Below are positions 1-10,824 of a stretch of 10,824 nt of DNA, in pieces. A model generated the notes under the pieces. It ran no database searches. It saw nothing but the letters and a program-made list of their open reading frames with translations, and was not told the origin of the DNA. Source of the DNA: Bacteroidia bacterium (GTDB lineage Bacteria; Bacteroidota; Bacteroidia; Bacteroidales; VadinHA17); NCBI GenBank assembly GCA_026391215.1, contig JAPLDX010000073.1, positions 1 to 10,824 of the forward strand, in the 5' to 3' direction. The position numbers and the translations under genes were made by a program. Position 1 is the stretch's first letter, and each line of letters opens with the position of its first letter.

Positions 1-15
1 CTGGCATTATTTGAA

Positions 16-924
16 ATGAAAGACAAGTATTACCTTGGTATTGATATCGGAGGAACCAAATGCGCGGTTATTGCCGGTACTGAAAACATGGAGATCCTTG
101 AAAAATCAGTTTTCCCGACTGAAACACACAGGGGTCCGGAACATACCATCAGTCTTCTCTTGAAAAGTGCGTCCACAATAACCGGGAAGCTTGGCTTACG
201 CGGATTACAGTCAATTGGGATCAGCTGCGGAGGACCACTTGATAGCAAAACAGGTATTGTGCAATCGCCCCCCAACCTTCCTGGCTGGGACAATATTCCT
301 ATCGTTCAGAATTTCAGTGACGCCTTCCATGTTCCTGCATATCTTCAGAATGATGCCAATGCATGTGCTCTGGCTGAATGGAAATTCGGAGCCGGAAAAG
401 GATGTGAGAATATGATATTCCTGACCTTCGGCACCGGGATGGGCGCAGGAATAATTATCGGCGGGAAAATATATTCAGGCACTAACGACCTTGCCGGTGA
501 AGTGGGACATATCCGGCTGGCGGATGATGGACCTGAGGCTTATGGTAAAAAAGGTTCATTTGAAGGTTTTTGCAGCGGAACAGGAATCGCTCTTATAGCA
601 AAAAAAATGATCATTGAGAAACTTGCTGATGGAGAAACTGTTTCATTTTGTCAGGACATTAAAGTTCTAAATAATATAACCACAAAAGATATTGCAGAAG
701 CAGCCTCTGCAGGAGATAAAACTGCGCTTGAAATTTTTGAATTCTCCGGGAAACAAGCCCGCTGCAGGCAATTCATAGAACCAGCCTGTATGAAAATCAT
801 TAAGCAGGAAGCGCTGGAACCATCCAGGTCGGTTTGCAGAGTAGTCCCTGCGTCACTTGGAGACCAGGTCGGAGATTTCGCCAGCTTGAGTGTTGCTATT
901 ATCGGGACAACCGGTAACCTATAA
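16..924 (+). CDS. ROK family sugar kinase (glucokinase-like), with an apparent in-frame internal deletion near the C-terminus
   Basis: N-terminal GIDIGGTK phosphate-binding motif, GISCGGPLD, LQNDANACALAEWKFGAG, FLTFGTGMGAG and AGEVGH ROK motifs. The Zn-binding CxCGxxGC is replaced by AYGKKGSFEG. The usual LGxGLxxLxxxLNPxxIVIG segment is missing between FSGKQ and ARCRQ (junction about 756/757). Confidence 0.9.
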   Translation: MKDKYYLGIDIGGTKCAVIAGTENMEILEKSVFPTETHRGPEHTISLLLKSASTITGKLGLRGLQSIGISCGGPLDSKTGIVQSPPNLPGWDNIPIVQNFSDAFHVPAYLQNDANACALAEWKFGAGKGCENMIFLTFGTGMGAGIIIGGKIYSGTNDLAGEVGHIRLADDGPEAYGKKGSFEGFCSGTGIALIAKKMIIEKLADGETVSFCQDIKVLNNITTKDIAEAASAGDKTALEIFEFSGKQARCRQFIEPACMKIIKQEALEPSRSVCRVVPASLGDQVGDFASLSVAIIGTTGNL

Positions 925-934
925 TTAAAAACTA

Positions 935-3469
935 ATGAGCAATAAAGACAGAACAAAGTCTCTTTCCCGCAGGGCATTTGTAAACCGGACAGCGGCAGGC
1001 AGTGTATTTCTTGTCCTTGGCCCGCTGACAAACATTATCCATTTTGAGCAGCAAGCTGCAAAACACAGGATACACATGATAGGCCATGCTCATATTGATC
1101 CGGTATGGCTCTGGCCTTGGCCTGAAGGTATGGCTGTGGTTTACAGCACATTCCGCTCAGCACTCGACCGAATGAACGAAACACCTGACTTTACATTTAC
1201 AGCCAGCTCTGCACAGTTCTACCAGTGGATCGCTGAAAATGATCCTTCAATGCTGGCTGAGATTAAAAAACGCGTTAATGAAGGGCGCTGGAATATTGCA
1301 GGCGGATGGTGGATAGAGCCTGATATGAATATTCCATCCGGTGAGGCAATGGTGAGACAGGGGCTGTATGGTCAGCTGACTTTCCAACGGCTTCTTGGTC
1401 GTCGTGCAACAGTTGCTGCCAATCCTGATTCATTTGGACATACCAGTACTCTACCCCAGATAATAAAGGGTCAGGGTATGGAAAATTATATTTTCATGCG
1501 TCCGGGGATCAGGGAAAAAAATCTTCCTTCTGATCTGTTCTGGTGGGAAGGACCTGACGGAACACGTGTTCTTACTTACAGAATACCAATTAGTTACAAT
1601 GATAGCGGTTCAGTAAGGAAACGCATTGAGGATGTCCTTTCCCAGTTCGAATATCTGCCTGTGAAGAGTTATATGGTATATTATGGTGCCGGCGACCATG
1701 GAGGTGGTGCAACAAAAGAGAATATCCGTTCCATCAATGAATTGAAAACTGAAAAGAATGCCCCTGTCATTTTTTACAGCACTACAGACAATTACTTTAA
1801 TGAGATCCGAAAAGAAAATGGCTTAAATCTGCCTGTTGTTAGAGATGACCTCCAGCATCATGCAGTTGGATGTTATACAGCCGAATCAGAAATCAAGAAA
1901 GGGAACCGTCAATCAGAGGCGGCACTTATTACTGCCGAGAAAATAACTTCGATCGGTTTCGCAACATGGGGATCAGATTATCCGATAGATAAATTCACAT
2001 CTGCCTGGCAAAGAGTACTTTTTCTTCAGTTCCATGACAGCATTGCAGGAACATCTGTACCGGAGCACTCCCAGCATGCGCGTGAAGGTTACGGTTATGC
2101 AATGGATATTGCACATCAGGCAACCTATGTGGCTCTTCAAAAGCTTGAAAGCCAGATACCTTCAGAAGATCCTGATTCTGAATATCTCGTGGTATTCAAT
2201 CCGCATGTCTGGGAGGTGACAGGTGATATTGAATATGACTTCGGATGGCGTCTGCGAAATCCTCTGCTGGTTGAGGATGAAAAAGGGAATGCCCTGCTTC
2301 ACCAATGGGGACCTGGATCAACAGAAACGGGAAACCGTAACAGGCTTGTTGTACATCTTTCCGTCCCTCCTCTTGGTTACCGTCAGATACATTTACGGCA
2401 GGGTAATCCTGCGCTTGTTAAAAATCCTGCATCGGCAAGTGACAGGAGGCTGGAAAATGAATTCTTAAAGGTAAGCTTCCAGGATGATGGCACCCCTGGT
2501 ATCTATGATATAGAAAACGGTAAGGAACTCTTTTCAGGTGGCAAAACCGGTTGCAGGGCAGTTGTAATAAATGATCCCAGTGATACGTGGAGCCATGATA
2601 TTAAAACCTTTTCAGATGAGATCGGTGCTTTCGGAAATGCTGTTTTTAAAGTGCTTGAAAACGGTCCGTTGAGAGCAAAGATCCGTGTGGTCACAACTTA
2701 CGGCAATTCTGAACTCGTTATTGACTGGATGCTCTCTTCCGGATCACGGCAGCTTGAGGCATCAGTCAGGCTTGACTGGCATGAACATCTTAAAATGCTC
2801 AAGTTTTCTTTCCCATTGAACATAGATTCTCCTGTTGCAACTTATGAAACACCATACGGAAACATTGAAAGGATAACAAACGGAGATGAAGAACCGGGTC
2901 AGAGGTGGATCGATCTTACAGGAGAACATGAAGGCACAGTTTACGGGCTTACAGTGATCAACGATGCAAAATATGGTTATAACGTGCCGGGAAATGACCT
3001 CCGTATCTCAATTGCCAGATCGGCAGTTTATGCACACCATAACCCTAAAGTACTGGATATGAATGCTGAACATATCTGGCAGGACCAGGGAATACAGACT
3101 TTTCGTATGCTGCTTGTTCCTCACATGGATACATGGAAGAAGAATAATATTTCCAGAACTGCAGAGGAATTCATTTCACCTTTATTAATGATCTATCAGG
3201 GGATCCATGATGGAACGATGCCAAAATCCGGTTCATTTCTTTTTGCAGATGCTGAGAATATTATTGTTTCATCAGTCAAGCTGGCAGAAGAGGGTGATGA
3301 CCTTATTCTCCGTTGTGTTGAGACATCAGGGTTGGAGACTATTGCGACAATCGATCTAAGGTTCGCAGGACTTAAATGGAAAGGCATTTTCAGACAATAT
3401 GAGATAAAAACTCTAAGGATGAACAAAGCAACTAAAGAGATCCGTGAGGTTAATCTTCTGGAGGAATAA
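935..3469 (+). CDS. Glycoside hydrolase family 38 alpha-mannosidase with twin-arginine-like N-terminal signal
   Basis: GHAHIDPVWLW metal-binding motif, GGWWIEPDMNIPSGE, PDSFGH (catalytic nucleophile region), YGAGDHGGG, QFHDSIAGTS and the C-terminal NDAKYG motif. SRRAFV at 965-982. Starts 10 nt after the ROK stop, so probably co-transcribed. Confidence 0.93.
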   Translation: MSNKDRTKSLSRRAFVNRTAAGSVFLVLGPLTNIIHFEQQAAKHRIHMIGHAHIDPVWLWPWPEGMAVVYSTFRSALDRMNETPDFTFTASSAQFYQWIAENDPSMLAEIKKRVNEGRWNIAGGWWIEPDMNIPSGEAMVRQGLYGQLTFQRLLGRRATVAANPDSFGHTSTLPQIIKGQGMENYIFMRPGIREKNLPSDLFWWEGPDGTRVLTYRIPISYNDSGSVRKRIEDVLSQFEYLPVKSYMVYYGAGDHGGGATKENIRSINELKTEKNAPVIFYSTTDNYFNEIRKENGLNLPVVRDDLQHHAVGCYTAESEIKKGNRQSEAALITAEKITSIGFATWGSDYPIDKFTSAWQRVLFLQFHDSIAGTSVPEHSQHAREGYGYAMDIAHQATYVALQKLESQIPSEDPDSEYLVVFNPHVWEVTGDIEYDFGWRLRNPLLVEDEKGNALLHQWGPGSTETGNRNRLVVHLSVPPLGYRQIHLRQGNPALVKNPASASDRRLENEFLKVSFQDDGTPGIYDIENGKELFSGGKTGCRAVVINDPSDTWSHDIKTFSDEIGAFGNAVFKVLENGPLRAKIRVVTTYGNSELVIDWMLSSGSRQLEASVRLDWHEHLKMLKFSFPLNIDSPVATYETPYGNIERITNGDEEPGQRWIDLTGEHEGTVYGLTVINDAKYGYNVPGNDLRISIARSAVYAHHNPKVLDMNAEHIWQDQGIQTFRMLLVPHMDTWKKNNISRTAEEFISPLLMIYQGIHDGTMPKSGSFLFADAENIIVSSVKLAEEGDDLILRCVETSGLETIATIDLRFAGLKWKGIFRQYEIKTLRMNKATKEIREVNLLEE

Positions 3470-3474
3470 AAAAC

Positions 3475-3590
3475 ATGTACCTACCCCCAACCCCCTCCCT
3501 GCTTCGTAAGGAGGGGGTGTAACGAATTGTATATCAATGATATCCCCCTCCTTGCGTCAGCAGGGAGGGGGAATATGGGGGTGGGTACGT
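3475..3590. repeat. REP/BIME-like element: two inverted copies of a hairpin-containing unit between convergent genes; may also act as a bidirectional terminator or mRNA stabiliser
   Basis: Left unit 3475-3517 is ATGTACCTACCCCCAACCCCCTCCCTGCTTCGTAAGGAGGGGG. The reverse complement of the right unit (3544-3590) is ACGTACCCACCCCCATATTCCCCCTCCCTGCTGACGCAAGGAGGGGG. Each unit has its own CCCCCTCC...GGAGGGGG stem. The units are separated by a 26-nt AT-rich spacer. Confidence 0.85.
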
Positions 3591-3601
3591 GCGACGAATT
3601 A

Positions 3602-5287
3602 TTAATTTTTCCCTTTCATCACATTCTTCTTATCCGGGAGTTTTATATTCTTTACCGGAATCACTTCTTCAAGAATAAGCACAATATCACCATCAACCGG
3701 TGAGGTAACGGTGAGAATATTTCCGTTATCGGTACCGGTTCCGTCAGAGTATGTATTCTTTACGGGATCAAACCATCTGACGCTGTAATTCTTCCCTTCA
3801 GGTTTCCTTATGCTGATAGTCAGCTTTACAGGAAGATAGGACAGAATAGTCTTGTTGTCGGTGGTTTTGACAACAGATACAAAATGATTATAGGTTTTAT
3901 CTCCGGGCTGGTTCACCAGAAGGTACTGGGCAGGATAAAAATTCCACCAGGCAAACCGCCTGATGAACTGTGCAAGATATCCCATCTGGATCGATCCGGG
4001 AAAATTTATACTTACGTCCCATGAAGAAGTTCCCGTTGCATCCTCATGGTTCAGTATCTTTTCGCCTTCACGTAGCCAGGGCCAGATACCATTTGCCCCG
4101 TATGTGATGCCGGCAATAGGTGTGGCAAAAATGCTCCAGTATGATGCATTCCGGACATCTTTATCTGTGATCGTGAAGAATATCTGTTCATAGTTTGGTT
4201 CAAGGTTGATGAGAGGTCTTGCCGGCAAATGTGACCACATTTTACTCATAGGTCCTCTGGTGATCCAGTTTACTGTTCCTTCTGAATTGCTATGACTGCT
4301 CTGATAACCGATTATATCAAGCCAGGACTCATCCTTATATACCTCTCCGATCCATGATGTGCCGCACGGATGCTGGGTTACAATGCCCTGGTGTTTTCCG
4401 TCAAATACTGCCCTGCCGATTGTCTTCCAACGCTGTTCATAAGTGCCGGTATAAAATCCGTCGCCGCCAAGTATCCATACAACATGATTTCCTCCATACC
4501 TGGCAACTATATATTTGGCAAGCAGAATAGCCTGATCATCAGGTAAATAATAACCCGGGCTCAGCTCTTTACCTTCAGCTACCGGGAGAGCCCACAACAC
4601 AACCGGTGCAGCCAAAAGTCCAAATTCATTTATCCTGTCAATCTTCTTATCAATCAGCCTGAAAAAATCAGGATTTATGCTTATAAGCCCGCTTCCTTCA
4701 AATGCAATAAGCCCCTCGCTGCTCTTATCACCCCCCCTCCACTGAGTCGTGACAAACTGGATAACACTGTAGCTATTCGCTGCTCTTTGCTGAAGGTACT
4801 TATCCCATTCTTCATCAGTCGATTTTAAGGCACCGTTCCATGCCGTGCATGCAAGCCAGAAAAAAGGAGTGCCATCAGAATGAGCAAGGTAATATGTACC
4901 CGCAGGATTTATTACGGGGCCGTGTTTGAATATGTCTTTCTGGTCATTATTTGGCTTGCAGGTAAATGTCCCTTTCTGTCCGTGCAGACCGCTGTTTTTA
5001 GTGTCCGAGCAGCTTGTTTCGAAGCTCCATTTACCGGTTTCTCCCGGAAGGAACCGTGTCTTCCAGCTTGTTCCTCCATCCCAGAAACCATTTATCGTTT
5101 TCCGTATGCCGGTAGGAGAAGTGAAGGTCACTTCAAAGCTCCAGACATCCTGGATTGGATTTTCATAATCAGTGCTGCTGATAAATGAAAGTTCATATTT
5201 GTGCCATTTCAGAGCATCCGGAAACTGTGAATTAAGAACAAAAGAACAAGACAATAACAGAGAAAACAGGATTATTCTTTTCATCAT
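3602..5287 (-). CDS. Secreted DUF5060/DUF4038 domain protein (GH140 apiosidase-like glycoside hydrolase) with C-terminal collagen-binding-like beta domain
   Basis: Signal peptide MMKRIILFSLLLSCSFVLNS. DUF5060-type FTSPTG...GFWDGGTSWKTRF..GETGKW. DUF4038-type SDGTPFFWLACTAW, YIVARYG, VWILGGDG, QSSH, INLEPNYE and GITYGANGIW. C-terminal VRWFDP...DIVLIL. Confidence 0.85.
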   Translation of the reverse strand: MMKRIILFSLLLSCSFVLNSQFPDALKWHKYELSFISSTDYENPIQDVWSFEVTFTSPTGIRKTINGFWDGGTSWKTRFLPGETGKWSFETSCSDTKNSGLHGQKGTFTCKPNNDQKDIFKHGPVINPAGTYYLAHSDGTPFFWLACTAWNGALKSTDEEWDKYLQQRAANSYSVIQFVTTQWRGGDKSSEGLIAFEGSGLISINPDFFRLIDKKIDRINEFGLLAAPVVLWALPVAEGKELSPGYYLPDDQAILLAKYIVARYGGNHVVWILGGDGFYTGTYEQRWKTIGRAVFDGKHQGIVTQHPCGTSWIGEVYKDESWLDIIGYQSSHSNSEGTVNWITRGPMSKMWSHLPARPLINLEPNYEQIFFTITDKDVRNASYWSIFATPIAGITYGANGIWPWLREGEKILNHEDATGTSSWDVSINFPGSIQMGYLAQFIRRFAWWNFYPAQYLLVNQPGDKTYNHFVSVVKTTDNKTILSYLPVKLTISIRKPEGKNYSVRWFDPVKNTYSDGTGTDNGNILTVTSPVDGDIVLILEEVIPVKNIKLPDKKNVMKGKN

Positions 5288-5338
5288 AATTCAATTAAAT
5301 TTCGTTAATTTATACCGTACTAAATTATTAATAAAAAA
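5288..5338. promoter_or_regulatory. Very short AT-rich divergent promoter region with inverted repeat TAATTTA-N8-TAAATTA
   Basis: Only 51 bp separate the two divergent start codons. TAATTTA at 5306-5312 and TAAATTA at 5321-5327 each resemble a variant Bacteroidota -7 box (TAnnTTTG), one on each strand. Confidence 0.4.
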
Positions 5339-6046
5339 GTGAATTCAATAATTAAAAAAATCAGGGCAGAACTGATCAAAAATGCCGACGAAAAAACCAG
5401 GATCCAGGGAGAAAAATTTTTCAAGGAGAACATTAAGATATATGGTCTGAGATCGGCTCAAACAGTGCAGATCAGCAAAGAATTCTACAAAACCATTCCT
5501 GATAAATCCAAGGCAAATATCTTCTCATTATGCGAAGAGTTATGGCAGTCAGGGTACATGGAAGAAGCAGGCATTGCGTGCATGTGGTCATATAATATAA
5601 GAAAAGATTATGTACCTGCTGATTTCAGGGTATTTGAAAGGTGGGTTAGCAAGTATGTATCCAACTGGGCGGCATGCGATACTCTCTGTAACCATACTGT
5701 AGGCTCGTTCATTGAGATGTATCCATCCTACCTTGCAGGGCTTAAAAGATGGTCGGGATCCAAAAACCGCTGGGTTAAGCGTGCCTCTGCTGTTACACTG
5801 ATTGTTCCCGCCCGTAAAGGCCTATTCCTTGATGACATTTTCGAGATTGCTGATATCCTGCATTCCGATCCTGACGACATGGTCCAGAAAGGATATGGCT
5901 GGATGCTTAAGGTAGCGAGCCAGGCTCACCAGAAAGAGGTATTTGATTATGTCATGAGAAAGAAGAAAACCATGCCGCGTACTGCGCTCAGGTACGCGAT
6001 TGAAAAAATGCCTCCGGATTTAAGGAAGAAGGCTATGGCAAAATAA
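5339..6046 (+). CDS. DNA alkylation repair protein (AlkD-like HEAT-repeat DNA glycosylase family)
   Basis: GTG start. Motifs LCEELWQSGYMEE, YVSNWAACDTLC, SKNRWVKRASAV, DMVQKGYGWMLK and MPRTALRYAIEK are typical of the DNA_alkylation/AlkD family. Confidence 0.88.
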   Translation: MNSIIKKIRAELIKNADEKTRIQGEKFFKENIKIYGLRSAQTVQISKEFYKTIPDKSKANIFSLCEELWQSGYMEEAGIACMWSYNIRKDYVPADFRVFERWVSKYVSNWAACDTLCNHTVGSFIEMYPSYLAGLKRWSGSKNRWVKRASAVTLIVPARKGLFLDDIFEIADILHSDPDDMVQKGYGWMLKVASQAHQKEVFDYVMRKKKTMPRTALRYAIEKMPPDLRKKAMAK

Positions 6047-6058
6047 CAAACCTCTGTT

Positions 6059-6066
6059 TACCTTTG
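6059..6066 (+). promoter_or_regulatory. Bacteroidota sigma-ABfr-type -7 promoter box for the ggt-family gene
   Basis: TACCTTTG matches TAnnTTTG exactly and lies 20 nt upstream of the ATG at 6087. No clear TTTG -33 box. Confidence 0.6.
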
Positions 6067-6086
6067 TGCAATAATTATTTCTTAAA

Positions 6087-7775
6087 ATGAAAAACCTGAT
6101 CACCTGTTTTATTATACTCATCATTCCATTCACACTGCTTGCCCAGGACAGGGTTACCGGTCATGATTTTGCAACCAGGTCTGAAGTTATTGCCCGTAAC
6201 GGGATGGCTGCAACCAGCCAGCCTCTTGCTACTCAGGTAGCCCTGGATATCCTTAAAAAAGGAGGTAATGCCATCGATGCTGCCATAGCTGCAAATGCAG
6301 TACTGGGATTAATGGAGCCTACAGGTTGCGGCATTGGAGGAGATCTTTTTGCCCTGATCTGGAGCGCTGAAAAAGGAAAGCTGTACGGACTGAATGCCAG
6401 TGGCAGATCACCAAGGTCTCTCAAACTGGAATATTTTAAGGAGAATGGCCTTGATCGAATCCCTTCACGCGGACCTCTGCCAGTTTCCGTTCCTGGTTGC
6501 GTTGACGGATGGTATGAGATGCACGATATGTTCGGGCGCCTTCCAATGAAAGATATACTTCAGCCTGCAATAAATTATGCCCGGGAAGGCTTTCCTGTAA
6601 GTGAAGTCATTGCCTATTATCTCGAAAGTGGAACAAATGCTCTCAAGGAATATCCCAATGTAAAGGAAATCTATATGCCCGGAGGCAAATCACCGGCAAA
6701 AGGCGAGATCTTCAAAAATCCTCTTCTGGCAAATACCTACGAAAAGATCGTAAAAGGCGGAAGGAATGAATTTTACAGGGGCAGCATAGCGCGTGATATT
6801 GCAACATTCATGAAGAAACAGGGTGGATTTCTTGCTTATGATGACCTCTCACGTCACCATTCTGAATGGGTGGAGCCGGTAAAAACAACGTACAGAGGTT
6901 ATGAAGTGTGGGAGCTTCCTCCGAACGGACAGGGCATTGCAGCACTTCAGATGCTGAATATTCTTGAAGGTTACGACTTATCCTCAATGGGATTTGGATC
7001 AACGGAATACATTCACCTTTTTACTGAAGCTAAGAAGCTGGCTTTTGAGGACCGTGCCAAATATTATGCTGATCCGCTCTTCGCCAAAGTACCTGTCGCC
7101 GAACTGATCTCGAAAAAATATGCAGCCGAAAGACGCAAGCTCATTGATCCCGAAAAAGCCTCCAGGATTTATGATGCTGGCGTTATTGAAGCCGGTAATA
7201 CTATTTATCTCACTGTGGCCGATAAATATGGGAACATGGTTTCGCTTATCCAGAGCAATTACCGGGGAATGGGGTCGGGAATGTGCCCGACAGGGATGGG
7301 ATTCATCCTCCAGGACAGGGGTGAGATGTTCAGCCTGGCACCTGGACACGCAAACGTTTATGCGCCCGGGAAAAGACCTTTCCATACGATCATACCGGCT
7401 TTTATTACGAAAAACGGGAAACCCTGGATCAGCTTTGTAGTTATGGGCGGTGACATGCAGCCGCAGGGACAAGCCCAGATAGTTATTAATCTCATTGATT
7501 TTAAAATGAATCTCCAGGAAGCCGGTGATGCGCCAAGAATTTACCATACAGGATCTTCAGAGCCGACAGGAGAGCAGATGACTGACGGCGGTATTTTGCA
7601 GCTTGAGAGCGGATTCCGCACTGAAGTCATCCAGAAGCTGATGTCGATGGGGCACACAATTCAGTGGAACCTTGGAGGCTATGGCGGCTACCAGGCTATC
7701 ATGTGGGACGCCAAAAACAAAGTATGGTATGGGGCCTCGGAATCCCGGAAAGACGGGCAGGCGGCAGGATACTAA
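6087..7775 (+). CDS. ggt: Gamma-glutamyltransferase family Ntn-hydrolase precursor, secreted
   Basis: Signal peptide, GGNAIDAAIA, EPTGCGIGGDLF, VSVPGCVDGW, LPPNGQG, autocleavage Thr in GN/TIYLTVAD (T372, 7200-7202), PGKRPFHTIIP, MGGDMQPQGQ and C-terminal SESRKDG. PFHTIIP in place of PLSSMSP points to the YwrD/acylase-like branch, so the substrate is uncertain. Confidence 0.9.
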   Translation: MKNLITCFIILIIPFTLLAQDRVTGHDFATRSEVIARNGMAATSQPLATQVALDILKKGGNAIDAAIAANAVLGLMEPTGCGIGGDLFALIWSAEKGKLYGLNASGRSPRSLKLEYFKENGLDRIPSRGPLPVSVPGCVDGWYEMHDMFGRLPMKDILQPAINYAREGFPVSEVIAYYLESGTNALKEYPNVKEIYMPGGKSPAKGEIFKNPLLANTYEKIVKGGRNEFYRGSIARDIATFMKKQGGFLAYDDLSRHHSEWVEPVKTTYRGYEVWELPPNGQGIAALQMLNILEGYDLSSMGFGSTEYIHLFTEAKKLAFEDRAKYYADPLFAKVPVAELISKKYAAERRKLIDPEKASRIYDAGVIEAGNTIYLTVADKYGNMVSLIQSNYRGMGSGMCPTGMGFILQDRGEMFSLAPGHANVYAPGKRPFHTIIPAFITKNGKPWISFVVMGGDMQPQGQAQIVINLIDFKMNLQEAGDAPRIYHTGSSEPTGEQMTDGGILQLESGFRTEVIQKLMSMGHTIQWNLGGYGGYQAIMWDAKNKVWYGASESRKDGQAAGY

Positions 7776-7965: not shown

Positions 7966-9006
7966 ATGGCAGCCACCAATGAACTTCTCATTCAGAAGGT
8001 ATTTCAGGAGATGCTGAAGTACAAACCCTCAATGCAAAAGATGCTTATAGCCGACGAGGAGGAGGAAGAAACCCTTGATCCGCGCTTGCTTGGTGATCTC
8101 ATTATCAGGAACTTCCCATGGCCTATCGGAGTAGAACTGCGGAGACTCTTCTCCGCATCGACACGCCAGCTCGACAGGATGCGCCTTGACCAGATATTCA
8201 AGACTATTGAGCGAAGCATGCAGTTCTTAAGCTTCCTTATGATCAGCCAGCTCTGGAAGGATACAAAGGAGAAAAAGCTTGCCATTCCTGACGGATTCAG
8301 AAAAGAGTTCAACGAACGTATTATGGTACTGAGCATGGGTAATTATACATGGCTCATAAGGGCGATCGGAACCTTCATGCAGGAAAAAGGCATCACCTGG
8401 TTCATGCCCGAAATGGGAGAGAATTTTGACAAGAAGTTCTATGCTGCTCTCGACTTCTGGGTACCGGAGCGCAATGAAATAGGACATTACCAGATCAACC
8501 TTACAAATGAGGAGATAGAAAAACGGTGTGTTGAATATGAAGAAAAGCTATCCTTAATACTCGAAAAGCTTGCATTTATTTCCAAGTATAAGCTTGTTTC
8601 CGTGCGTGAGATCAAGGTAATACATCCGAAGAACCAGGTGGCAAAGTTCAACCATATAATCGATCTTCTGAGCAGTTCCGATTCCGGGTTCAAGGCACAG
8701 GAGCTCGAGGAGACCAAATATGCAGAGAGCAGTTCCGTTCTGCTCATGAAGTCCCTCAAGTCTTTTGATGAATATCTTAACCTCTCCCCTCTCGTAATTG
8801 ACACCAATTCTGAGGTCATTGATGATAAGGAGAAATTCGATATCAAGAAGGACATATTCATGTATACTAAGTTCCGCGGTGATCAGCTGATGTATGTTGG
8901 AACGGAAGTAACGGAGAAATGCGATCTGCGGAGCCTTCACAATTACGCGACCCTGGTGGAGCAGTTTAAGGATATGCTGGCCACCATCTCAGGGAGTCCT
9001 GCATAA
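7966..9006 (+). CDS. Uncharacterised 346-aa cytoplasmic protein with HEPN-like RxxxxH motif; putative effector/partner of the downstream STAND NTPase
   Basis: Long clean ORF with no signal peptide or TM segment. The N-terminal half looks helical: FPWPIGVELRRL...FKTIERSMQFL (E82)...LSMGNYTWLIR...ERNEIGH (R169-H174, 8470-8487). The C-terminal half looks beta-rich (LVSVREIKV, LNLSPLVID, DIFMY). The CDS is confident; the HEPN assignment is tentative. Confidence 0.75.
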   Translation: MAATNELLIQKVFQEMLKYKPSMQKMLIADEEEEETLDPRLLGDLIIRNFPWPIGVELRRLFSASTRQLDRMRLDQIFKTIERSMQFLSFLMISQLWKDTKEKKLAIPDGFRKEFNERIMVLSMGNYTWLIRAIGTFMQEKGITWFMPEMGENFDKKFYAALDFWVPERNEIGHYQINLTNEEIEKRCVEYEEKLSLILEKLAFISKYKLVSVREIKVIHPKNQVAKFNHIIDLLSSSDSGFKAQELEETKYAESSSVLLMKSLKSFDEYLNLSPLVIDTNSEVIDDKEKFDIKKDIFMYTKFRGDQLMYVGTEVTEKCDLRSLHNYATLVEQFKDMLATISGSPA

Positions 9007-9022
9007 TTTGAACATGCTCTTT

Positions 9023-10824
9023 ATGAAATCCCCCTTTAAGTTTCTGGACAGTTACACCAAAGACGACCGCGGGATCTTCTTCGGCCGTGACCGTGAGATT
9101 GAAGAGCTATATCATCGTGTCTTCGAGAGTAAAATCATGCTTGTTTACGGAGTATCGGGTACAGGCAAATCTTCTCTTATACATTGCGGATTAGCTAACA
9201 AGTTCCAGGATACTGACTGGCTGCCGATTGTGATACGTCGTGGAGGTAACATAATTGAAAGCCTGGCTGCCGGGATCGGTTCGGCTTCGCTCACCGAACA
9301 ACAAAGTAAGTTTGCAAATCCTTCAGATTTTAAGAAAGGAGTCCGTTCACTATATCTTGATCATTACAAACCTGTTTTTTTCATTTTCGATCAGTTCGAG
9401 GAACTATTCATTTTCGGGAATAAGGAAGAGCGCAAGTCATTCATTCATATTGTTAAATTATTAACAGAATCAGATCTCCAGTGCCGTATGATCTTCGTGA
9501 TGCGTGAAGAATATATGGCTGGAGTAACAGAATTTGAAAAGTTCATTCCGACATTCTTTGGCAACAGGGTGCGTATAGAAAAAATGTCACACAGGAATGC
9601 CATGGAAGCAATAAAAGAACCTTGTAAAGTATTTAATATCAGCCTTGAAGAAGGTTTTGCAGAGACGCTTCTTGAGAAGCTGAGCCCTGACGAAACAGAT
9701 GTTGAACTTACATATCTTCAGGTCTATCTTGACAAGATATTCCGTCTGGACACTGGGTTTGTTCCCCCCTCCCAGGGGGGAAAAGAAGGGGGGTTATCCT
9801 TCACACTTGCCCTTCTCTCTAAAATCGGAAATGTCACCGACTTGCTGGGGAGCTTCCTTGATGAACAGGTCTCGCTTCTTGATAATCCTGATGAGGGATT
9901 GGCCGTACTTAAATCCTTTGTGTCAGTCAAGGGATCAAGAAGACAGATTAATCTGGAAGAAATATCTGAATACACTCAGACATTTGGTCAACCTGTAAAA
10001 GAATCAGTATTAAAGGACCTGATCCAGACATTCATAAATCTGCGTATCCTCCGTGATAAGGATCAGAATGAGAAGTACGAACTCAGGCACGATGCACTTG
10101 CAACAAAAATTTATGAGAAGATATCTCTTGTCGAAAAAGAGATACTGGAAATCAGACAGTTTATTGACAATGCATATAGCAGCTTTAAAAAGCGGGGAGT
10201 ATATCTTTCTTCTGATGACCTTAATTATATTGCCCCATATGAAAGCAGGCTTTTTCTTTCAAAAGAATTATCTGACTTTATCTATGAAAGCAAGGAAAAG
10301 CTGACCATGTCAAAACGAAGGAAAAGAAATATCGTATTTGCATCTGCAATAGCCTTATTCGTTGTTCTGGCAGGATTTACCATCTGGGCAATAAATGAGA
10401 AAAACAAAGCAGATAAAGCCGGTATAAGACAGCTTGAATCGATTTTGAAACTCAATGAAAACTTTGAGAAAGTCAAAAAAAATCAGGTACAGAGCAAAGC
10501 TGAATTATATCAAATGTTCGAAATGTCATATCTGACTCATCCGGATAAGCTGCGGGGACTCTGGGACAAAGCCCTGGCTATCAGGAAAGCCTCTGATAAA
10601 TTGACAGATTTTATTTATCAGCTGGAGTACAAAATGTTATCTGAATCAGAGAATATCAGTCTTGATTCAGCACGGAATACAAATCTTGAGATAGTAAAGA
10701 ATAAATCAAATTCAAAGATCCCTTTTCAGATACTTTTCGAAACCAATAAAGAGACGGAATTTTCAAATGTCTTACTGCTAAAACAAAAAATCCGGGATTA
10801 CAGAAGAACAATTTTTGACCAGAT
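9023..10824 (+). CDS. nSTAND1-type P-loop NTPase with single TM helix and periplasmic GldM/PorM N-terminal-like domain (3' partial)
   Basis: Translated by hand, 600 codons with no stop (alternative in-frame ATG at 9014). Begins MKSPFKFLDSY...FFGRDREIEEL. Walker A GVSGTGKS (9149-9172), Walker B FFIFDQFEELF (9377-9409), sensor IFVMREEY, VELTYLQVYLDKIF, winged-helix YELRHDAL (10076-10099). KRRKR (10313-10327) precedes TM IVFASAIALFVVLAGFTIWAI (10331-10393), then a helical GldM-like region. Missing from the ORF track because it is open-ended. Confidence 0.9.
   Translation, partial: MKSPFKFLDSYTKDDRGIFFGRDREIEELYHRVFESKIMLVYGVSGTGKSSLIHCGLANKFQDTDWLPIVIRRGGNIIESLAAGIGSASLTEQQSKFANPSDFKKGVRSLYLDHYKPVFFIFDQFEELFIFGNKEERKSFIHIVKLLTESDLQCRMIFVMREEYMAGVTEFEKFIPTFFGNRVRIEKMSHRNAMEAIKEPCKVFNISLEEGFAETLLEKLSPDETDVELTYLQVYLDKIFRLDTGFVPPSQGGKEGGLSFTLALLSKIGNVTDLLGSFLDEQVSLLDNPDEGLAVLKSFVSVKGSRRQINLEEISEYTQTFGQPVKESVLKDLIQTFINLRILRDKDQNEKYELRHDALATKIYEKISLVEKEILEIRQFIDNAYSSFKKRGVYLSSDDLNYIAPYESRLFLSKELSDFIYESKEKLTMSKRRKRNIVFASAIALFVVLAGFTIWAINEKNKADKAGIRQLESILKLNENFEKVKKNQVQSKAELYQMFEMSYLTHPDKLRGLWDKALAIRKASDKLTDFIYQLEYKMLSESENISLDSARNTNLEIVKNKSNSKIPFQILFETNKETEFSNVLLLKQKIRDYRRTIFDQ
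9762..9795 (+). repeat. Palindromic mini-repeat lying in frame within the STAND CDS
   Basis: Perfect 9-bp stem TTCCCCCCT-ccc-AGGGGGGAA (9762-9782) followed by AAGAA and GGGGGG. This hairpin + short spacer + G-run layout matches the right unit at 3544-3590. Translates as VPPSQGGKEGGL. Confidence 0.65.

Follow-up and report, generated by a model that had tools for sequence, protein, structure and literature searches.

Can the periplasmic arm of a secretion motor serve as the input of a nucleotide-switch receptor? This question is raised by the last gene of the window analysed here, which is the whole of contig C28 (JAPLDX010000073.1, 10824 bases) from the genome assembly of an uncultured Bacteroidales bacterium (GCA_026391215.1; 3.39 Mb, 135 contigs, 98.9% complete). 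[quoted passage not shown] We describe this architecture and its relatives, and weigh the proposal that the fusion protein is a trans-envelope sensor with the 346-residue partner as its output.

Architecture of the fusion gene

The reading frame starts with the ATG at 9023 (MKSPFKFLD...) and stays open over 600 residues to the contig end, and its translation over 9023-10822 (plus strand) is, letter for letter, the peptide on which an earlier sequence-only reading of this DNA was based. Its features are as follows.

9023-10824, plus strand: STAND-TM-GldM gene, truncated at its 3' end where the contig stops, with 600 of about 975 codons
9032-10105, plus strand: nSTAND1 NTPase module, residues 4-361 (PF20703, 144.9 bits against a cut-off of 27.1)
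9149-9172, plus strand: Walker A, GVSGTGKS, residues 43-50, read from the translation
9374-9403, plus strand: Walker B region, VFFIFDQFEE, residues 118-127, read from the translation
9755-9800, plus strand: G/P-rich variable insert VPPSQGGKEGG in the STAND module, differing among relatives
10331-10393, plus strand: single TM helix, residues 437-457, from a hydropathy scan, preceded by KRRKR
10430-10824, plus strand: helical domain D1 of GldM/PorM, first two thirds, with the Pfam match at 10448-10813

The segment QLESILKLNENFEKV... begins at base 10430 (residue 470), C-terminal to the hydrophobic segment IVFASAIALFVVLAGFTIW (residues 437-455). In this segment the sequence-only reading had recognised the first domain of GldM/PorM, fused behind a TM helix to a STAND NTPase and cut off at the window edge. 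It had advised profile and structure comparisons, a look for Ig-like domains D2-D4 downstream and for a separate gldKLMN operon, and a check for a chimeric junction. The fusion it described stands, with both PF12081 and PF20703 above their cut-offs, and the domain is cut off because the contig itself ends there. GldM_1st (PF12081) matches residues 476-597 over profile positions 8-121 of 194, with 32.1 bits (E 1.4e-7) in the whole protein, 37.6 bits (E 3e-9) in the 131-residue stretch alone and 37 bits in the genome scan, against a curated cut-off of 25, and by these profile scores the match is well beyond chance. The nSTAND1 match scored 146.3 bits in the genome-wide scan. Among 22 family members, G43, S45, G46, T47, G48 and K49 of Walker A and F122, D123, Q124, E126 and E127 of Walker B are invariant.

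The rest of the arm was found in relatives. A word-indexed search with residues 455-600 returned eight other proteins, seven of which (963-983 residues) carry PF20703 followed by PF12081, PF21601, PF21602 and PF12080, that is, D1-D4; these seven are 49-72% identical to the window protein in the D1 region. Over 600-604 residues, the window protein is 77-79% identical to P0002 (974 residues) and to the product of L045:8582-11518 (978 residues). Two metagenome loci, L044 and L045, carry the STAND-TM-GldM architecture. Locus L045 is in full synteny with the window (GH38, apiosidase-like, DNA alkylation repair, gamma-glutamyltranspeptidase, partner and fusion; 70-88% amino acid identity), and its fusion gene is complete, with nSTAND1 and GldM_1st, 2nd, 3rd and 4th (GldM_1st at 57.9 bits). 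Given this complete syntenic gene and the full-length relatives, the window gene almost certainly continues into the D2-D4 domains that the sequence-only reading had proposed to look for.

Comparisons with the full-length relative P0003 reach the whole arm. Residues 482-979 match the GldM model TIGR03517 over positions 36-522 of 524 (181.5 bits, cut-off 180), and residues 497-973 match Porphyromonas gingivalis PorM (7cmg) by sequence at E 2.5e-37. An AlphaFold 2 model of P0003 (mean pLDDT 64.8, with the periplasmic part mostly at 70-90) matched 7cmg (E 8.4e-25) and the GldM structure 6ey4 (E 9.4e-20) by fold, and its D1 aligned with PorLM 7sat_A at a target TM-score of 0.72 (rmsd 3.8 over 206 columns).

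The remainder of the fusion gene was not found on other contigs by tblastn of the genome with P0002, P0003 and P0005 as queries; the only matches were C28 itself, STAND paralogues on C121 and C101, and a canonical GldM on C105. Contig C71 starts at a TPR-SpoIIE gene that in L045 follows some 5 kb downstream of the syntenic region, which places an assembly gap after C28. Logan contigs from two runs cover 9872-10824 and 9775-10824 without a break and differ from the window in 5 and 7 letters, and contigs from runs X1 and X3 extend 1167 and 1093 bases beyond the window end; these runs may be the samples behind the genome assembly itself. Together with the presence of the same architecture in other assemblies, this excludes a chimeric junction within the reach of the tools used.

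Around the VPPSQGGKEGG insert, Logan contigs have breaks at 9755 and 9795, and in three runs the contigs either end or depart from the window sequence there. No RNA data set listed holds 9800-10824, which is uninformative on expression. Among the relatives, the GldM part in L042:1-1706 lies in two overlapping frames at 981-984, and several STAND genes in L041:1467-16078 are split likewise; these split frames reflect either decay or indel errors of those assemblies.

The KRRKR before the helix puts the NTPase in the cytoplasm and the GldM part on the outer side, the orientation of real GldM, the basic residues in themselves being generic. The helix and its juxtamembrane motif FT[IF]WAL.E..KA (WA.NE.NKA) are common to the WD40-bearing paralogues P0011, P0018 and P0033 and unlike those of canonical GldM, including the genome's own. 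By these shared features, the helix is one of the STAND family and not that of GldM, and, with the match to TIGR03517 starting only at position 36 of the model, the GldM helix that pairs with GldL was not taken along. According to extracts of 10.1101/2022.01.28.478170, Arg9 in the TM helix of GldM faces Glu49 of GldL; the helix bearing the equivalent of Arg9 was not inherited by the fusion, and its absence makes a rotor role inside the GldL ring unlikely.

The source genome (G000) has a separate, canonical gldK-gldL-gldM-gldN operon at C105:22138-26879, and the fusion gene lies outside it, behind the gamma-glutamyltranspeptidase gene and the partner. The fused arm is 26-31% identical to canonical GldMs of the order and about 31% identical to the genome's own GldM. 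In a careful whole-arm tree, eight STAND-linked arms and 16 canonical GldMs are split by a 100/100 branch of length 0.76, which means that the STAND-linked D1-D4 subfamily had one origin and a long separate evolution. Conservation within the fused arms P0002-P0009 is highest in D1 (mean pairwise identity 0.57, versus 0.39-0.45 for D2-D4), and in canonical GldMs it is about equal across the domains (0.36-0.40).

Paralogues, distribution and the partner gene

What stands behind the STAND-TM part of the protein varies among its relatives. In a complete HMMER scan of the 1.84 billion representatives, P0003 retrieved 1310 proteins at E 1e-30 or better; for almost all of the best 150, the match is confined to residues 1 to about 475, the STAND and TM part. 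A hidden Markov model of the fused arm identified GldM-derived domains in 27 of these best 150 representatives: four of the D1-D4 type (the window protein included, two of them fragments), one with D1 and D3-D4 (P0020), one with D2-D4 (P0023) and 21 with D3-D4 only. Pfam agreed in the 13 of the 27 that were scanned, with one of two domains below cut-off or unlisted in five. Five others that were sampled, the paralogue on C121 among them, all carry WD40 repeats. The source genome itself has two further nSTAND1-TM genes, the one on C121 with WD40 (by Pfam) and one on C101 with a coiled coil and WD40-like repeats (by eye). No Pfam domain lies N-terminal of residue 4 in the window protein and no repeats were found, the sensor position being occupied by GldM according to Pfam. 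The GldM part thus sits where WD40 propellers sit in paralogues, which fits the suggestion in the sequence-only reading that a motor domain was recruited as a sensor module.

Tandem STAND-TM arrays occur in L044, L045, L031 and L041. In the genome of P0003, the array at L044:1794-21073 comprises two partner genes, STAND-WD40 (1450 residues), STAND-GldM (985 residues), an AAA_14/DUF4143 ATPase (403 residues), STAND-WD40 (1429 residues), a LolA-like gene in the opposite orientation and STAND-WD40 (905 residues). P0020 (948 residues) has three hydrophobic segments (starting at 461, 492 and 520), then D1 (114 bits) and D3-D4 without D2; if all three segments span the membrane, its arm would stay outside. 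A D3-D4 tree made by a quick method over 197 columns, which left out sequences with fewer than 150 aligned residues (P0030, P0113, P0119 and P0092), was poorly resolved; the STAND-linked modules need three changes on it, one origin is compatible, and the tree gives no conclusion on the number of recruitments. In this short tree, the D3-D4 of P0002 stands apart from those of the other fusions, which hints at module exchange.

Forms that include D1 are rare. Among 401 sampled genomes of the order, a D1-bearing fusion was present in two, the source genome and G078 (43% identity), and among 60 relatives, 36 of them of the same genus, no orthologue was found, the best matches being canonical GldMs or matches to the TM region. 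A pattern scan of 185,579 species genomes with P0003, which requires exact peptide words and so undercounts, found 16 loci, of which 14 were STAND-only paralogues, with the GldM part only in L042. JGI labels three such fusion proteins simply as GldM.

The second constant element is the partner gene, with the following features in the window.

7966-9006, plus strand: gene of the 346-residue partner, which belongs to no known family, with 16 bases between its end and the STAND gene
8470-8487, plus strand: R169-N-E-I-G-H174, the R-N-x3-H motif of the partner, conserved in stand-alone relatives
9200-9373, plus strand: stretch of the STAND gene with the predicted partner-docking surface, residues 60-65 and 109-117, from the interface of a complex model

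Of the 14 fetched loci with 1.2 kb or more of upstream sequence, 12 have the partner gene immediately upstream of their first STAND gene; the two loci without it, L028 and L034, may both start inside an array. Up to four STAND genes follow one partner (L044), and a partner paralogue, 66% identical, lies upstream of the second STAND gene on C121. In the sample of 401 genomes, a stand-alone partner was present in 11, the source genome among them, and no form fused to CHAT was found. No match was obtained for the partner in Pfam (E up to 10), NCBIfam, PADLOC or PDB profiles. Its relatives form 1127 clusters, and among the 120 listed none carries a Pfam domain and the named ones are called hypothetical protein. 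Atlas placed it among unnamed clusters, with an EAD11-bearing cluster at 0.81 as a lead.

A complex model of the partner with STAND residues 1-435 gave an ipSAE of 0.73, versus 0.00 for the best of three controls; this mark is reached by 58 of 80 solved complexes and by 2 of 110 mismatched pairs, counts that apply approximately here because our own alignments served as input. At least 80% of the contacts agree between runs, and the partner has a pLDDT of at least 81 in the complex. The predicted contacts join STAND residues 60-65 and 109-117 to partner residues 38-47 and 59-66, with contact residues that are invariant in both families; K60, F61, D65, L112, D113, K116 and P117 of the STAND module are unchanged across GldM-type and WD40-type paralogues alike. 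The model thus supports docking of the partner on the NTPase. Moreover, the partner stretch IIRNFPWPIG..LR.L, which includes the predicted STAND contact, is kept in relatives (P0277-P0307) in which the partner module makes up the C-terminal half: 20 clusters with an AraC helix-turn-helix, 18 of which also have a class III cyclase, and 11 with CHAT.

The partner also carries R-N-x3-H, which we take to be a HEPN-type motif (Rx4-6H), and R169, N170, G173 and H174 are identical in 130 of 130 distinct stand-alone relatives. In the model of the partner alone (pLDDT 63.5), the N-terminal helical half is reliable and the C-terminal beta-rich part is of low confidence; the four-helix core (residues about 50-207) matches HEPN domains at Z 5-6 (8xdj, 3o10, 6tug, 8jbc, 1wol and 1jog) and the Roquin N-terminal region at Z 8.3. 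A Foldseek search of the model against the PDB gave nothing at E 0.001 or better. A HEPN-like RNase is a tentative assignment, to which we give roughly one chance in three, and the role of a STAND-docking module is better supported. We also weighed EACC1 (Kaur 2020) as an identity for the partner but discarded it, since it is a small domain with a single TM segment and the partner a soluble protein of 346 residues.

The other genes of the window are as follows.

1-7775: ROK-family kinase (5' end cut), GH38 alpha-mannosidase, apiosidase-like hydrolase with DUF5060 (minus strand), DNA alkylation repair protein and gamma-glutamyltranspeptidase

Sensor, rod, decoy or motor part

What could a GldM arm do behind a STAND NTPase? 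We favour, at about an even chance, a trans-envelope STAND sensor in which the arm is the input module and the partner the output. The architecture and homology, the topology logic, the exchange of periplasmic modules on a constant STAND-TM backbone, the gene pairing with the partner and the separate canonical T9SS are shown by the data, and from them we infer ligand, signal and output. The protein is a bitopic nSTAND1 protein of the inner membrane, with the ATPase in the cytoplasm, one TM helix typical of the family and the GldM/PorM arm (helical D1 and, almost certainly, Ig-like D2-D4) in the periplasm in its native orientation. It belongs to a two-part system of one 346-residue partner followed by one to four tandem STAND-TM paralogues, which differ only in the periplasmic module: WD40, D1-D4, D2-D4, D1 with D3-D4, or D3-D4 with or without further repeats. 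According to extracts of PMC5790014, D4 of real PorM suffices for PorN binding, PorK requires D2-D4, and D2 and D3 exchange strands in the PorM dimer, so that the recurring D3-D4 unit would be the part that dimerises and reaches the ring.

The arm could thus form a D2/D3-swapped dimer, about 18 nm long, that would reach the GldK/GldN ring at the outer membrane, to which D4 binds in real PorM. The input might be loss, occupation or disruption of the ring, or a foreign factor gripping GldM; the change would be relayed through the TM helices to the NTPase, and a nucleotide-dependent assembly of the NTPase would then switch the docked partner, the presumed output. The partner may be a HEPN-like RNase, and in relatives the docking module is fused to a CHAT protease or to an AraC helix-turn-helix with a nucleotide cyclase. 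The options for what is sensed are the T9SS ring, an invader, or nothing, with the arm as a stalk only. We prefer a sensor that reads the GldK/N ring or events there, with the stalk-only and decoy readings live and a motor subunit unlikely.

One specific form of this proposal is an NLR-like receptor that guards the T9SS/gliding machine, in which the arm would dock on or compete for the GldK/N ring and report disturbance by phages or predators to the NTPase, which would switch on a docked effector from a new family; we regard it as unlikely. Membership in the STAND clade, the paralogue arrays, and the CHAT and cyclase domains among the partner-module fusions speak for an immune role.

Several observations weigh against the sensor proposal or parts of it. 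The D2-D4 domains of the window's own gene are absent from the assembly, and the link of the arm to the ring is a proposal. The fused arm sits on its long branch and keeps 62-93% of the near-invariant residues of canonical GldMs, and most of these are structural G, P or F, so that GldN/K binding may or may not have been retained; for the same reason, we set aside the per-domain retention of these residues as an uninformative readout of binding. Against an immune role, the neighbours in the window are ordinary metabolic genes and form no defence island, and in PADLOC-DB 2.0 the partner matched 0 families and P0003 had mad8 as its sole match, with 17.1 bits (E 7e-4) in the P-loop region. As for a HEPN-like partner, R-N-x3-H is lost in the CHAT-fused and cyclase-fused relatives, and matches at Z 5-8 lie below the noise level stated for helical bundles. 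Finally, two paralogues show how GldM domains might serve as a stalk: P0089 has WD40 repeats behind D3-D4, and, on Atlas features alone (score 0.95, 129-157 of them shared), P0027 has a TPR-like tail of 380 residues, which we treat as a lead.

The last two cases lead to the best of the rival readings, which we consider rather unlikely for the window protein: the GldM domains would act only as a rigid, strand-swapped periplasmic dimer that spaces two STAND chains and has no link to T9SS, and in the D1-D4 form the arm would sense something unrelated or simply keep the receptor dimeric. Together with P0089 and P0027, the 21 representatives among the best 150 in which D3-D4 alone follows straight after the TM helix give this reading real weight for those forms, and the D2/D3 strand swap of the GldM dimer described in extracts of PMC5790014 suits a rod. 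However, the window subfamily ends with D4 and has no distal repeats, which leaves the arm as its sole candidate input; the PorN-binding domain D4 is kept in every listed GldM-bearing form that is complete at its C-terminal side; and D1 is the best conserved domain of the fusions (0.57 versus 0.39-0.45), which would not be required of a mere spacer.

Plant NLRs with integrated decoys have a copied host protein in the STAND receptor where the sensor would sit. By analogy, the arm might mimic GldM, and a phage, predator or toxin factor seizing the real rotor would also seize the copy and trigger the STAND protein, a reading we judge improbable. A complete copy of a host-machine part stands on a STAND backbone whose paralogues bear classical sensor repeats, the paralogue arrays behind one shared partner resemble receptor diversification, and, in extracts of 10.1101/2020.10.02.323337 and PMC9804748, T9SS/gliding genes are determinants of phage susceptibility in Flavobacterium, with resistance mapping to them. 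An arm with only 26-31% identity to the GldMs of the order and 31% to the genome's own is, however, a poor mimic. The defence-island context is also missing. Moreover, GldM is periplasmic, and we know of no phage or toxin that targets it directly, although no search was made for such.

That the fusion is a T9SS component or regulator, which joins the GldL stator with or instead of GldM and links motor activity to ATP or a signal in the cytoplasm, or else reports T9SS assembly to gene regulation, is very improbable in our view. The whole GldM arm is present, and the fusion of the partner module to an AraC helix-turn-helix and class III cyclase points to regulatory outputs. Yet the TM helix is not that of GldM and the Arg9-bearing helix was not inherited, and, considering extracts of 10.1101/2022.01.28.478170, the N-terminal NTPase of 435 residues would occupy the closing site of the cytoplasmic cage of GldL. 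The gene is also not in the gldKLMN operon, and its occurrence in 2 of 401 genomes of the order is not that of a core T9SS part. Convergent to the STAND array of L045, a gene at 14274-14984 (minus strand) encodes a membrane protein of 236 residues with a GldL_N-like hairpin (31.4 bits, cut-off 24), which would suit such a component; L044 has the LolA-like gene at the same place, and a dedicated stator was therefore rejected as a conserved feature. Last, an assembly chimera or dead gene fragment is barely credible: the gene is cut by the contig end and some relatives are frame-broken, but seven full-length relatives from separate assemblies and the fusion genes of L044 and L045 are intact, contigs span the junction and pass the window end, and all 600 codons are open with intact Walker motifs.

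Other GldL-like sequences were observed in the source genome. An open reading frame for 234 residues at C42:11599-11877 (minus strand) is similar to the 236-residue protein of L045. At C77:38104-39884, a multi-TM protein of 479 residues has three GldL_N-like hairpins (32.7, 32.5 and 20.8 bits) and a weak GldM_1st-like C terminus (17.7 bits, below cut-off), and a further pair of GldL_N-like hairpins is encoded by the gene after it. The genome seems to reuse motor-derived modules in additional membrane proteins.

Known systems and significance

We found no paper that links GldM/PorM with a STAND or NTPase domain, although the supplementary architecture tables of Kaur 2020/2021 could list such proteins; in term searches, GldM/PorM was unmentioned in PMC7159879, PMC8195603, PMC10907252 and PMC12803255. 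The fusion shares with GldM/PorM (6ey4, 7cmg, 6ys8 and 7sat) four periplasmic domains in the same order and the N-in/C-out topology, and this likeness is significant by Pfam, TIGR03517, PDB sequence search and fold. It differs in having an NTPase of 435 residues and a foreign TM helix in place of the short cytoplasmic tail and helix of GldM, as well as in its gene position, its 100/100 branch, its 26-31% identity and its rarity (2/401 genomes).

With the nSTAND1-clade NTPases (PF20703) from putative conflict systems (Kaur et al. 2021, PMC8195603), it shares intact Walker A and B motifs in an NTPase that scores above the cut-off, a C-terminal module that varies and stands where sensor repeats do, and the paralogue arrays. 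In contrast to them, it is without an N-terminal effector or EAD domain, the Pfam match starting at residue 4, and its TM helix places the variable module, here a T9SS part, in the periplasm. The likeness to plant NLRs with integrated decoys is an analogy only, as the copy is periplasmic and diverged here and no targeting factor is known. The four-helix core of the partner resembles HEPN RNase effectors at Z 5-6, within the noise for helical bundles, and its stand-alone forms have the invariant R-N-x3-H; the partner differs in being without profile support, in losing the motif in fused relatives and in having an extra C-terminal beta-rich part.

The fusion is thus a STAND receptor with an unusual periplasmic module derived from a machine, accompanied by an undescribed partner family. 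Receptors of the STAND/NLR type are understood to sense in the cytoplasm and to bear repeat domains. Here the variable module lies beyond the inner membrane, and in one branch of the family it is the periplasmic arm of the T9SS motor in its entirety. Should the arm have kept its binding to the GldK/N ring, it would be a direct link from a secretion and motility machine to nucleotide-switch signalling, as well as a natural, separable probe for the poorly defined contact between GldM and GldK/N. If the guard reading is true, this would be the first host-machine domain integrated in a prokaryotic STAND protein and the first trans-envelope STAND signalling. The partner is predicted to be a new STAND-docking module, and defining it would annotate many Bacteroidota genes that are now called hypothetical.

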